The notes beneath the pieces were generated by a model. The model was not told the origin of the DNA. It worked only from the letters and a program-made list of their open reading frames with translations, and did not search any database. From Octopus vulgaris (taxonomy: Eukaryota), in the NCBI GenBank assembly GCA_951406725.2, contig OX597832.1, positions 71,362,001 to 71,426,000 of the forward strand: a stretch of DNA of 64,000 nt, in the 5' to 3' direction. Below are positions 23,871 to 64,000 of the stretch, piece after piece (position 1 is the first letter of the stretch; each line of letters begins with the position of its first letter). Position numbers and translations under genes: made by a program.

Positions 23871-23960
23871 TTTCGGTACAATTGTTTCGTACGAAGACCA
23901 GCTTTATTAAGGCTGCAAATATTGCAGTAAATATAAGTGACCCGTACTCATCAGCCGAAA
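23871..23960 (-). ncRNA. Type I hammerhead ribozyme motif
   Basis: UUUCGG-CUGAUGA-GUACG...CGUAC-GAAAC-AAUU-GUA-CCGAAA on the minus strand. Confidence 0.85.
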
Positions 23961-24590
23961 AAACATCTGAGTTCTCCAAACATCTAAGGGGGTGAGGTTA
24001 CACTCCTGAAACATCAGGGATTGTTCTATAAAAATCAGATTTAGATAACAAACGTAAATCCATCCATATTGAAGTAAGTTTGATTTCTGGAGATATGAGG
24101 AGAGATTTCATACTCACAGACTATGCATTTATCCATAATTAGTCCATAATAAAGTGTGTTTCCTGATGTATGATGATATACTGGTTACATTTCTGAAAAT
24201 TTCTCAAAACTGCTATGTTAGAATTTTGTTTGTTGAAGGAAAGTTAGTGGAGCATAGAGACAATCACTCACATAGGGTATAATGGGGTAACTGAGAGGGG
24301 AAGGGGATGTGAATATCCAACTACGCAGAATAGTTTAGTCTGTGAGTATGAAATCTCTCCTCATATCTCCAGAAATCAAATTTACTTCAATATGGATGGA
24401 TTTACAATTTCATTTTCTGGGAAACTAAAAGGTTTTTTAAAATACTTTTTTAAAACCTGTTATATGACTGTGCAACATTAAAGAACTTTGGAAGTCCGTT
24501 TGTTATCTAAATCTGATTTTTATAGAACAATTCCTGATGTTTCAGGAGTGTAACCTCACCCCCTTAGATGTTTGGAGAACTCAGATGTTT

Positions 24591-24680
24591 TTTCGGCTGA
24601 TGAGTACAGGTTACTTATATTTACTGCAATATTTGCAGCCTTCATAAAGCTGGTCTTCGTACGAAACAATTGTACCGAAA
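24591..24680 (+). ncRNA. Type I hammerhead ribozyme motif
   Basis: tttcgg CTGATGA gtac...gtac GAAAC aatt GTA ccgaaa; predicted cleavage after 24674. Confidence 0.85.
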
Positions 24681-24721
24681 TATTGATCCATTTTTGTTGC
24701 TTTTTTCTTGTATATATATAT

Positions 24722-26684
24722 ATATATATATAAAACTGAAATGCGTTTTTACCGCTTGGATCGCTTTCAAGGCCACTACATCCCATCCAATTCACTCCAA
24801 AATTTACAGGGACCATGTAAAATGAGGTGACGATGCCCATGGGCTACCTTACAAATCCCTATCTTAAAAGGTGTCGTTGCTAGGGGCCAAAAACCCACTT
24901 TGACAAGTCCACTTCCGTTCTTTTACGTATATGTCTTCCTCACTCACTCACGCTATTTCCTCCATTCCCCTCTAACTCCCCTTCAGTTTCCCTTTATAAG
25001 TTCGTCAATCAGCGTTCTTTTATGTATCTGTCTGCATTCATAGAGAGAATTATCAACAACACACAAGCATGAGAACAAATATTATGAATCAGATATTTCT
25101 TGCGTTCATTTATGTGTGTGTGTGTGTGTGTTCTATATATAAATATGTATATATAATGTATATATACAAAGTGTATATATCTGTATTTATGTATATTAAA
25201 CTTTTTAATACTTTTTGATAGTTATATATATTTTTAAACAAATTATAAATATAATTTAATAATTTTTATTTTAAATTTAAATAATTTAATTTTTTCAATT
25301 TTATATATTATATATTTTCTATATTATATTTTTATTTTCATGTTTTTGTTTTTGGTTTTTCACTGTTTGATTTGCCTATTAGTGGTTTTATCTCTAATTA
25401 AATTTATACATATATAATTTGTATACATTTGTATATATAATGCGTGCACACACACACACACACACACACATATATATATATATATATAATGTGTGCATTA
25501 TGTGGTCGGTCGGTTCAGCTGAAAATATGCACACCTATGTTAAAAGTGCTGGCAAGTTTGCACGACAACTATTTTTTTCCTCAAATGAAAGGCGTCACCT
25601 CTAGGACAAAATTACTCATCTTATAAAATGTGGCCCCAGTAGACCCGAATGAAATCGAGTTATATTAACCAAAATGTGAAAAGGGGTCTAAATGGGGCTG
25701 GAAGGGGATTAAAATTTAAAGGAGCGAGTGTTTAGGAATTCTCTGTTACATCACGCTAAAAAATTTGCAACAGCCTTTTAATCGTCAATGTGTTACCATC
25801 CATGATGAAGAAGTTTTGAATGCTTGTCATGGTGAGTCTACTGTCATGAGAAAGAATCACTTCAAAACTTGGTGTTTACGAATTTTCTTTTACATCAAGT
25901 TCAAAATTTTACGCCAGCCGTTAAACTGTCAATACGTTGCTGTCCGTCGATAAGAAATGCCAGCCATGGTGACTCTACTATCCTCAGATTCTATCCCTTC
26001 AAACTTTGGTTTCCAATATTTTATTATTTTTATTCAGCTCGCAAGTTCGTCTGTCCCATTTAAATGTTAGCGTTTTGCTGTCAGCCTTGAAGCAGACCTT
26101 TCCGTTGCCACTGCCTGATATTTATGATTGATCTTTCTAAATATTTTATTTCTCAACTTACTCAAGATCTTTTGTTGTTTATAAATGGGAGAGAGATAGA
26201 TAAAGATAGAGAGTAAGAGAAAGCGAGGGAGAGCCCGAGAGAAAAGAAAAGTAAGAGAGTGGGAAAGTGAGAGAGAAAGGAGAGAGAAACAAAGAGGGAG
26301 AATCATCATCATCATCATCGTTTAACGTCCGTTTTCCATGCTAGCATGGGTTGGACAGTTTGACCGGGGTCTGGGAAGCCAGGAGGCTGCACCAGGCTCC
26401 AGTCTGATCTGGCAGTGTTTCTACAGGTGGATGCCCTTCCTAACGCCAACCACTCTGTGAGCGTAGTGGGTGCTTTTTTTGTGCCGCCGGCACAAGTGCC
26501 AGGAGGGCTGGCAGCAGCTACGCTCGGTTGGTGCTTTTTACGTGCCACCGGCACAGAAGCCAGTCAAGGCAGCGCTGCAATCAGCCACGTTCAGATGGTG
26601 CTTTTTACATGCTGAAAGGAAGCAACAGAAAGTAACAACCACACTCTTACCCGCGCGTAGAGTAAGAGTGTATACTTCAGCTAG
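24722..26684 (+). mobile_element. Non-autonomous Helitron (~1.95 kb), 5' end merged with (TA)n
   Basis: 3' hairpin acactcttac/gtaagagtgt then CTAG|T (26681-26685). 5' tatataaaactga resembles the 5' end of the 30837-35081 Helitron. Confidence 0.7.
26304..26612 (-). mobile_element. RTE-type tail element nested in the Helitron
   Basis: Reverse complement of the shared tail, with (ATC)n at 26304-26318. Confidence 0.8.
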
Positions 26685-26829
26685 TATATATATATACATA
26701 TATATTATTCTTTTATTCCTTTATACGATTCAGCCCTGAGGCTGTGGCCATGCTGAAGCACAGCCAGTGGAATATTATTATTGTTGTTGTTGCTGTTGTT
26801 CTTGTTAAGATTAGTGGTGGGGAAGTGTC

Positions 26830-27740
26830 ATGACTTTCTCTAGGCGCCGCCGAGAATGAACTGACTTTCTGGTCGGGAACTATCATGGATAATTTCCGGA
26901 TGTCCTTGGTCTGGCAGTGCTACTGGGGGTGGTGGGTGCTACCAGTTTGGGACAAGCTCTACAGGCACAGACGTGCTGTCAGATGGACCTGTCCAAGGTG
27001 CACGCAGTGTGACAAAACTATTCTGCACACCCTCATTCAGTGTCAAGGCATTTCTGATTTGTGGGGTTATGTTGACTAATCCATCAGTTGGCCAAGTCTG
27101 TAGTAATAATTGCACTGCTGCCTTCTTTCAATCAGGCAGGTAAGGCAGTTTTCCCTTGCCTGGTGGCTGTGGCGAAAAAAGTTGTTTGGTGTACAAGACT
27201 GAAAGGCATGAGGACAGATCCATTCCTCTCATTGACTTTTTCAAGTTTTACTTGAAAAGGAAATTGAGAGTGGAGAGGGAAGTGCAGTCCTCAAGTGAGT
27301 TTATTGAAAGGTGGGTGAAAGTTATGAAAATGGCAAGAATGGATGGTACCTCTCTAAGTGTAGACATGTGAGTCAGAGAGAAAGAATTGGAGAGGGCACT
27401 TGCTCCTAGGGTTTCAGGGAAATCTTTGACAGTGTAGCTCTTCGATTATCCCTAGAGGCGTTCATGTATCAGGAGGGCCACATCTCTATCATCTCCCCCA
27501 TTTTTTTTTTTACCTTTGTAAGCTATGCATATGTCTCTTTTTCAAATGTATACCATGTATACTTTTTTTTAAAATTATTTCACTATTATATGTAAACCCC
27601 CACACTTTATATCTGTCTGTATATCGTCCCCCTCATCCTTCGCCTTTGTGGTAAATAAATGAAATCATTATTATTATTATTATTATTACTATTATTATTA
27701 TTATTATTATTATTATTATTATTATTATTATTATTATTAC
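26830..27740 (+). mobile_element. L1/Tx1-like LINE 3' fragment
   Basis: CPRC-x-TILH-x-QC zinc knuckle (ORF 26885-27079), F..RW C-terminal motif, 3' UTR with AATAAA and (ATT)n tail. Confidence 0.65.
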
Positions 27741-62648: not shown

Positions 62649-62674
62649 ATATATATATATATATATATATATTC

Positions 62675-62812
62675 TTTCTTTTCTTTTACTTGTTTCAGTC
62701 ATTTTGACTGCGGCCATGCTGGAGCACCGCTTTTAGTCGAGCAAATCGACCCCGGGACTTATTCTTTGTAAGCCCAGTACTTATTCTATCGGTCTCTTTT
62801 GCCGAACCGCTA
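62675..62812 (-). mobile_element. SINE family 2, 3' part (young, CpG-retaining)
   Basis: Matches 27760-27890. Confidence 0.8.
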
Positions 62813-62887
62813 TATATATATATATATATATATATATATATATATATATATATATATATATATATATATATATATATATATTATATA

Positions 62888-63120
62888 GGAGGCGCAATGG
62901 CCCAGTGGTTAGGGCAGCGGACTTGCGGTCGGAGGATCGCGGTTTCGATTCCCAGACCGGGCGTTGTGTGTGTTTATTGAGCGAAAACACCTAAAAGCTC
63001 CACGAGGCTCCGGCAGGGGATGGTGGTGATCCCTGCTGTACTCTTTCACCACTCTAAAGGCGGTGCTCCAGCATGGCCGCGGTCGAATGACTGAAACAAG
63101 TACAAAAAAAAAAAAAAAAA
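62888..63120 (+). mobile_element. tRNA-derived SINE with a different head but the family-2 tail
   Basis: A box tggcccagtgg, B box gtttcgattcc; tail aaggcggtgctccagcatggccgc...tgactgaaacaagta plus poly(A). Confidence 0.8.
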
Positions 63121-63207
63121 TATATATTTATATATATATATATATATATATATATATATATATATATATATATATATATATATATATATATATATATATA
63201 TATATAT

Positions 63208-64000
63208 GAAAGAATGGAGTCGAACGATGATTTAACAAAATTCCTTTATTCTCGACATATGTTTCGAAGACTGCATATTCTCAATTCCGAAGGAATAAAG
63301 GGTGCATTATGCTGCCTTCTCATCAGGAAAAACAAGGAACTTATGTCAGCATCATGACGAACAAAAACTTTTAGATGACTGCCCACACGGAGTCCATAGT
63401 GATAATGAGTGTTTCTTTAAAATATTCCGTTATAAGCAGTGACGTCAAAATTGGTTGGATGGAGAAGATTCTAAAGAGTTCAAGAGTTTAAAAATGGTTG
63501 GAATGGGAAAGTTCTAAGAATAGGAGGGTGACAGAGTGCAAGTCGTATGTATGGTGATGCGTTGTTGTTTGCTTTTGCTAATGAGATTGAGTGCCTATGT
63601 GTGTGTATGTATATAACTGCATTCGTGTCTATGTGTGTGTGTGTGTGCGTGATTGTGTGTGTGTGGGGATAAATGTCAAATACATCTAGTGGTGAAGTGA
63701 CAGTTTTATGTCTGTGTGTTTGTTTGTGCTTATAATAGAGAGAGGGAGAGAGAGAGAGGGGGAGAGGTAGAGAGACAAAGGTAGAACATACCCCAACGAG
63801 TTTGGTAGTAGTTCTTCATGTAACTGAGTATAAAAAAATTTTTCTATGGCGTTGTTGTAGAAGTAGAACCAATTTATTAAATTCAAGGAGGTTATCTATA
63901 TTATTCATCATTCATATGAGTGGAAGGTGTGCTTCCTCCAGTGCATGCACCTATAGGATTTTTCTACCATTGTGTTTACTAAAGGGAATTTGGCGAAAAG
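63208..64000 (-). mobile_element. Probable Penelope-like element 3' end, running off the window
   Basis: Intact hammerhead near an end abutting (TA)n; FRQIPFSKH-like relic at the window edge is only weak protein support. Confidence 0.55.
63249..63331 (-). ncRNA. Type I hammerhead ribozyme motif (GUC cleavage triplet)
   Basis: UUUUC-CUGAUGA-GAAGGCaGCAUA(30 nt)UAUGCaGUCUUC-GAAAC-AUAU-GUC-GAGAA. Confidence 0.88.

Follow-up and report, generated by a model that had tools for sequence, protein, structure and literature searches.

Hammerhead ribozymes in the pseudo-long terminal repeats (pLTRs) of Penelope-like elements, their presence in elements of the Hydra clade, the palindromic form of their helix III and their cleavage as dimers have all been published, and the dimer model has been stated both for metazoan type I hammerheads and for those of Penelope-like elements (PMC4209133, PMC6765202, PMC3088659; sources here and below are cited for the parts of them that were available). 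The marks of the Hydra clade, including a CxCX5C linker and a missing CCHH, are given in PMC8557442. In Anolis, the hammerhead of a Poseidon element cleaves only in the company of the element's own protein, and its cleavage was dispensable for insertion in vitro (PMC11167929). Here we analyze type I hammerheads with an unusually long helix II in a stretch of 64,000 nucleotides of Octopus vulgaris (contig OX597832.1, positions 71,362,001 to 71,426,000), hereafter the window. The reading that we favor, with a probability of about 0.6, is that they are the terminal pLTR hammerheads of Hydra-type Penelope-like elements, that their helix II is a likely tolerated long, imperfect extension, and that they likely cleave as dimers. 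They constitute neither a new ribozyme class nor a new association.

Hammerheads of the window and their carrier elements

A sequence-only reading of the window had listed eight hammerhead motifs in repeats that it took to be unrelated. Four of the eight, named here by position and strand (23954- and 24597+ of family A, 62404- of family C, 63326- of family B), are complete type I hammerhead folds with a long helix II, in which CUGANGA, GAAA and NUH follow one another in type I order and three helices close on the core, helix III having 2 bp in the monomer (Table 1). Three others are decayed copies with intact relatives elsewhere in the genome (36500+ and 38197+ of family D, 40895+ of family E), and the last, 35564-, is of the compact minimal kind, having just 12 nt in its helix II region and being devoid of both the long helix II and the 8-nt palindrome. 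The deletion in 38197+ takes out the 3' strand of helix II, and its constrained fold fails, while the full core of family E is present in other genomic copies. When the motif was defined strictly (CUGANGA, 8-130 nt, GAA, a perfect 8-nt palindrome AC..GU, then H), five instances were found in the window, against a mean of 0.007 and a maximum of 1 in 300 block shuffles. The earlier assignment to Penelope-like elements, as type I hammerheads whose palindromic helix III covaries, was sound, as were its four palindrome versions, its helix II lengths of 30, 54, 59 and ~116 nt (117 by our count) and its predicted cut after 24674, but the carriers are related Penelope-like families. It had also been anticipated that standard searches would miss the long variants; no hammerhead family was found among the 61 Rfam matches of the window at E<=1, probably because of the long insert, and the published descriptor extends to a maximum of 26 nt between boxes.

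On the evidence of motifs, including those of the reverse transcriptase (RT), all five long-helix families (A to E) are 3' pLTRs of Hydra-type Penelope-like elements, family C by way of a relative. The linkage to Hydra-type frames is direct for A, B and D and, for E, is given by fragments of RT and of endonuclease (EN) (L157, L165); family A is linked to Hydra-type RT and EN in L218, L219 and L220. No frame was seen for family C in 30 loci. Its relative is found in L428, a unit of two pLTRs enclosing an open reading frame (pLTR-ORF-pLTR) in which helix II has 39 nt and the 3' flank agrees by eye with the family C one; since this locus supplies a Hydra-type relative, an initial tie of family C to a neighboring Poseidon-like frame (L033, L079) was dropped. 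A profile search also ties families with helix II regions of 45, 50, 73, 77, 85 and 117 nt to Hydra-type frames, the 117-nt one by a single weak fragment, and found no Hydra-type frame in 9 of 10 further loci inspected, two of these nine being ~535-nt tandem arrays. Arrays with units of this length, each unit having a hammerhead with a helix II of 49-50 nt, occur in L430 (C1:16524000-16532000), L442 and L255-L257 and are retrozyme-like, and a second array type has a 25-nt helix II and a period of ~545-560 nt (L431, L441).

The frames themselves present the features expected of the clade. RT and, at the C terminus, a GIY-YIG endonuclease share one frame of 806 aa in L226 and occur as ordered fragments in L211, L212, L218, L222 and L428, the Pfam GIY-YIG match (E 0.0011) being weaker than the family cut-off. 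DKT replaces DKG, as DKTGN, in L004 (family A) and in L017/L226, the region not having been recovered for families B to E; the CxCX5C linker is present in family A (L005), L211 and L226; and the CCHH is absent, with just one cysteine between GIY and YIG in L005, L051, L211 and L226. The hammerhead lies on the coding strand, 0.3-2.1 kb 3' of the GIY-YIG frame, and in family D the pLTR-ORF-pLTR arrangement is seen within the window itself. The size of under 3 kb, which is a general and not a strict mark of the clade, does not hold here, with 4,842 nt between the hammerheads of L428 and 2.1 kb from frame to hammerhead in L211. Most genomic copies are dead 5'-truncated ends, and many copies of the families form outward-facing inverted pairs, terminated by (TA)n and with a short tail on one end, partial tandems also being found; inverted and one-tailed insertions of this kind are the anatomy that PMC8557442 and its preprint report for Penelope-like elements. 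The family A insertion of the window has a ~35-nt tail at its left end only and (TA)n at its right end, and in family B (TA)n is found ~45 nt past the predicted cut. The closest named relatives of the element RT are Argonauta hians proteins, with 40-46% identity.

Related sequences were also considered outside these families. An origin from Naiad elements was rejected, for the linked frames have a C-terminal EN and DKT, not an N-terminal EN and DKA. The published octopus Naiad consensus end has no long-helix type I motif by eye, and six 11-mers of core plus palindrome gave 0 matches in the PMC8557442 supplement, where line breaks could mask one. The 3' ends of Naiad_Obim and Naiad_Ovul (PMC8557442 File S5) have a GAAAC box preceding a CUGAUGA box, the 'half core' of the authors, with a 6-bp complement around the first; such an arrangement of boxes is possibly that of a permuted or different ribozyme. 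No relative of the element frame was found in viral contigs. Twelve Hydra-type loci were found in prokaryote assemblies (L443-L454), probably as contamination from host animals, and 10 of them have motifs, all with 11-24 nt in a scan that allowed ~150. Part of the family B stretch occurs in contigs under four organism labels. In L226 a hammerhead (5850-5925) follows the 806-aa frame, which is stop-free and of Hydra type, the element having been inserted directly behind a family A end.

Abundance and structure of the long helix II

The long-helix hammerheads were searched for in the octopus's own 2.8-Gb assembly, which is rich in microsatellites and transposon fragments. At first look, the candidates numbered 2,102 for family A, 2,414 for B, 1,199 for C, 264 for D and 161 for E, of which 40 were scored per family; the core is fully canonical in 31/33 (A), 28/35 (B) and 29/34 (C) copies, and in 9/29 (D) and 7/30 (E) aligned copies. 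Exact patterns, with the reversed pattern as control, gave 11,618 matches (776 in the control) for helix II regions of 8-23 nt, 13,528 (1,495) for 24-50 nt, 9,423 (25) for 40-70 nt, a class with narrower boxes that overlaps the previous one, 6,327 (115) for 71-100 nt and 1,491 (397) for 101-130 nt; the patterns differ by class, and one core can fall in two classes. After subtraction of the control, the three non-overlapping long classes (40 nt or longer) hold at least ~16,700 matches, against ~10,800 compact matches whose helix III is of the same kind. These counts bear out the previously suggested existence of a diverse long-helix-II radiation in this genome. The patterns, of the form GAAAC..GT, overlook other kinds of helix III, among them AUGGCCAU of L226 and the GAAACGUU of the minimal type, and, since the second helix III pair covaries too (AUGGCCAU, L226), they undercount.

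Structure was studied in 107 pattern-match loci, all near the start of contig C1, from which 67 inserts of at least 27 nt remained after dereplication at 80%; the motifs form 54 sequence clusters. Leaving the tetraloop free, helix III forms a perfect palindrome in 80 of the first 100 listed matches of 24-50 nt, in 11 versions, when 16/256 (6%) would be expected by chance; the tally was made by hand, on rows that repeat families. A further 7 of the same 100 belong to a family with the non-palindromic loop ACCGAGGU (L242, L247, L434, L435), the dimer of which would place tandem G-A mismatches at its middle. Helices I and II both reach at least 3 bp in 24/58 dereplicated genome matches and in 2/110 pattern matches from metagenomes, whose scan (117 stretches, 110 parsed motifs) was chance-like and served as control. 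At minimum energy, helix II closes on the core in 37/67 inserts versus 4/60 controls, 32 of the 37 being single rods, and the median z of the insert fold is -1.46, versus 0.18 in the control. In a family with inserts of 82-100 nt, 37 two-sided cells of compensatory change were counted in 16 sequences (16/23 kept), and 23 such cells in 19 sequences of family B (19/43 kept), numbers reached in 0/500 shuffles each; in this control on cells, relatedness by itself can pass.

The long helices are imperfect interrupted rods of 15-40 bp with bulges, and their length is continuous from 8 to 130 nt, with no insert seen to be common to families. Relatives of the C lineage that share their flanks have helices II of 19, 30 and 39 nt, and the first uninterrupted stack of helix II varies from 2 to 13 bp. 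Pairing of the insert with the 3' strand past helix I as a pseudoknot, which was suggested by eye in families A and B, was rejected as a general feature after complementarity exceeded all 40 shuffles in just 2/54 cluster representatives; in family B, the bases of the supposed pseudoknot pair within the insert instead. Folded as monomer hammerheads with a 2-bp helix III, the four intact copies are 1.2-7 kcal/mol less stable than in their minimum-energy folds, and two palindromes pair at -6.4 to -10 kcal/mol.

Table 1. Hammerheads and associated element fragments in the window
Feature	Positions	Strand	Description
Single 5'-truncated family A insertion	23800..24735		inverted arms 23835-24062 and 24489-24716, 96% complementary
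Family A hammerhead, intact	23871..23960	-	helix I 6 bp; helix II region 59 nt; helix III ACAAUUGU; predicted cut after 23877
Family A hammerhead, intact, inverted partner of 23871..23960	24591..24680	+	same 59 nt, ACAAUUGU and 6-bp helix I; predicted cut after 24674
Compact minimal hammerhead of a different repeat (35564-)	35534..35568	-	CCGACGA-12 nt-AAAACGUU; U4 and G12 altered
Family D hammerhead, decayed	36497..36599	+	G8 and G12 mutated (CUGACAA ... CAAACUAUUGUA); upstream pLTR of a partial tandem
Decayed Hydra-type RT thumb and GIY-YIG fragments	36860..37383	+	between the two family D copies; profile E 2e-19 and 5e-11
Family D hammerhead, downstream pLTR	38194..38270	+	core intact; 16-nt deletion breaks helix II
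Family E hammerhead, decayed	40891..41034	+	G12 -> C; helix I lost; helix II region 117 nt
Family C hammerhead, intact	62350..62410	-	helix I 6 bp; helix II region 30 nt; helix III ACGAUCGU; predicted cut after 62356
Inverted 3' fragment of a family C element	62434..62645	+	longer tail; terminates in (TA)n
Family B hammerhead, intact	63241..63339	-	helix I 5+7 bp; helix II region 54 nt; helix III ACAUAUGU; predicted cut after 63254
C-terminal end of the family B GIY-YIG endonuclease frame	63911..64000	-	~590 nt upstream of the hammerhead; runs on beyond the window

A second family C 3' end, at 28194-28390, is 92% complementary to 62449-62645 and stops before the hammerhead core. In the family of the minimal hammerhead at 35534-35568, CCGA replaces CUGA at the core in 5/11 copies from fetched genomic loci. 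The window also holds a stop-free frame of 632 aa for a hAT-type transposase (41488-43386, minus strand), with a Spin-doc zinc finger and a hAT dimerisation domain, and decayed fragments of RT-bearing retroelements and mariner-like elements at 7893-8315, 12986-13663, 31408-31869, 45213-47044, 48831-50539 and 52194-54083, recognized by eye and with one Pfam RVT_1 match. A Poseidon-like frame lies just past the right end of the window (L221:4784-6295).

A likely tolerated extension and competing readings

In the reading that we favor, read-through of a pLTR-ORF-pLTR tandem such as that of L428 would produce a transcript with two hammerheads, whose palindromes would join as one 8-bp helix III, possibly aided by the element's protein. 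Cleavage at GUA or GUC would then release a unit-length RNA with its 5' end a few hundred bases ahead of the frame. The core would require just the closed base of helix II, so that the far end could gain or lose sequence while remaining paired. The hammerheads would likely act as dimers on their own tandem transcript, cutting it by way of the palindromic helix III; the penalty of the monomer fold together with the self-duplex energy of the palindromes fits the published dimer model, and help from a protein is plausible given that the Anolis Poseidon hammerhead needs its own.

Several observations nevertheless weigh against this reading, on the side of catalysis, of structure and of assignment. 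Of nine Xenopus retrozyme dimers, eight remained uncleaved in vitro (10.64898/2026.07.22.740005), and helix I has merely 2-4 bp in many long families. The minimum-energy fold leaves helix II unclosed in 30/67 inserts, and on MAFFT alignments RNAalifold, when run unguided, missed the hammerhead fold. The structures used for covariation were drawn by hand from member sequences, which inflates pairing, and the count of pairs with a change is not above shuffles (87/500 and 91/500). Within helix II, G-U outnumbers A-C by 61 to 40 overall (33 to 27 and 28 to 13 in the two families, one of which has no excess), and the better fold is that of the sense strand in 33/67 inserts and of the antisense strand in 31; with no clear G-U excess and no strand asymmetry, selection at the RNA level on the far helix is therefore not separated from causes at the DNA level. 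Conservation within families is similar for core and insert (0.994 and 0.969 in A, 0.977 and 0.961 in B, 0.978 and 0.986 in C, 0.907 and 0.910 in D, 0.900 and 0.866 in E), and the family B frames show no visible CxCX5C linker. Such a small difference within families is to be expected when copies decay after insertion; the core persists across dissimilar families, and this persistence is the evidence of selection on it.

Among the alternatives, we find it unlikely that in these same elements the long helix II is a selected module, serving either to dock the RT-EN protein or to contact helix I through an internal loop and thereby activate the core. Helices of 50-100 nt do stay paired by compensatory changes far from the core, family B has a 5+7 bp helix I with an internal loop that covaries too, long helices are present in young high-copy families (A and B, with the candidate numbers given above), and the Poseidon hammerhead is protein-dependent (PMC11167929). 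A selected module is difficult to reconcile, however, with a length that runs continuously from 8 to 130 nt over 54 sequence clusters and a first stack of 2 to 13 bp, with the ~10,800 control-subtracted short-helix matches and the 11-24 nt of Hydra-type elements in other hosts, and with an insert-3'-strand complementarity above all shuffles in so few cluster representatives. Tolerance is favored over function on account of the length continuum, the differing relatives that share flanks, the variable first stack and the lack of a general pseudoknot. The earlier proposal that the insert provides a tertiary contact or a protein-binding site finds no evidence here, the pseudoknot test being negative across families and the length freely graded. 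More doubtful still is the boldest form of the idea, that over 16,000 hammerheads of one animal lineage form a radiation in which helix II is a selected, family-specific RT-endonuclease docking arm of 50-120 nt that gates cleavage through protein. If true, each Hydra family would have a private RNA address, and the hammerheads would form a natural aptazyme-like class invisible to current searches.

We hold it to be improbable that the long-helix motifs are silent or vestigial, their hairpins having arisen by RT fold-back or template switching and been homogenized at the DNA level. The lack of a clear G-U excess and of strand asymmetry in folding agrees with this explanation, as do the inverted repeats that these elements make routinely, the Anolis element without reads ending at the cut site (PMC11167929) and the weak in vitro cleavage by minimal hammerheads (PMC4209133). 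Against it, the 11 core nucleotides are the sole feature common to dozens of dissimilar families and lie on the coding strand in the linked ones, the core is fully canonical in the proportions already given for copies of A, B and C, the palindrome around the tetraloop is altered on both sides between families, and the helices are imperfect and bulged, not recent perfect fold-backs. Finally, it is very improbable that the motifs belong mainly to non-autonomous retrozymes, whose short tandem repeats give circular RNAs, and not to coding elements: although there are ~535-nt arrays with 49-50 nt helix II and no Hydra-profile match (L430, L442) and families with no linked frame (L213, L427, L429, L431, L432, L437, L441), short tandem arrays contain none of the window motifs, RT/EN fragments lie upstream of A, B, D and E, family D has its two pLTRs around a reading frame in the window, and a coding parent was partly recovered for A, B, D and E and through a relative for C.

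The hammerheads described here expose a blind spot of searches, as one genome holds more long-helix pattern matches outside the published descriptor than compact ones. Because the long helices exceed descriptor limits, reports of elements without hammerheads can be artefacts of loop limits. The Hydra clade, known from few families, grows to dozens in one genome. The graded natural series, from 19 to 123 nt and with at least 12 palindromes, is suited to testing the role of Penelope hammerheads, and could show whether the palindromes stop cross-pairing between families and how much helix II a natural core tolerates.

Comparison with described hammerheads

The metazoan Penelope type I hammerheads of Cervera and De la Pena (2014; PMC4209133) are alike in core, short helix I and an optional base after A9, as well as in the palindromic helix III as dimer signal and in the many divergent families per genome. 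A 'larger than usual helix II' of 7-8 bp was remarked in that work, whose descriptor for minimal hammerheads admits 3-7 bp in stem II, 3-10 nt in loop 2 and the above maximum of 26 nt between boxes, whereas the helices here are rods of 15-40 bp. A precedent for a long helix is PLE-X1_sMoe of Selaginella, which has 9 bp in stem II and ~35 nt in loop 2 and is marked as deviating (PMC8557442 File S2); unlike the octopus elements, it is a single plant family, EN-minus and targeted to rDNA, with no radiation described. Longer spacings also have precedents in the Naiad 'half cores', 35-50 nt apart, and in relaxed descriptors with longer loops (PMC8557442). Non-LTR retrozymes (PMC7229834; 10.64898/2026.07.22.740005) likewise have type I hammerheads with a 2-bp helix III and a tetraloop, a layout shared by L430 and L442, but the window copies are ends of coding elements, scattered in inverted or partial-tandem form, and not short arrays.

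With respect to prior cataloguing, the palindromic helix III was already published (PMC4209133, PMC3088659), while the long helix II was not found in the literature searched: the consulted parts of 10.64898/2026.07.22.740005, PMC7229834, PMC10085705 and PMC6962438 describe no long-helix-II radiation, and full-text literature searches, mostly judged by title and beginning of the abstract and with Lunse et al. 2017 (PMC5785218), Arkhipova et al. 2017 and some supplements outside their scope, returned no long-helix-II Penelope hammerhead or octopod radiation. Novelty of the long helix II is therefore probable. The closest described systems are the Hydra-clade hammerheads of Craig et al. (2021; PMC8557442 File S2), which are also of type I and near the 3' end of elements with a C-terminal EN, DKT, CxCX5C and (TA)n, have a self-complementary helix III, and include an octopus member, Hydra-1_Obim. 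Those hammerheads have 12-26 nt between boxes by our own count and mostly a helix III of 9-10 nt, whereas the ones described here have 30-123 nt and an 8-nt palindrome; and the octopus genome presents dozens of families in thousands of copies, with 3' untranslated regions of up to 2.1 kb and one unit of 4.8 kb, the described Hydra elements being generally under 3 kb.

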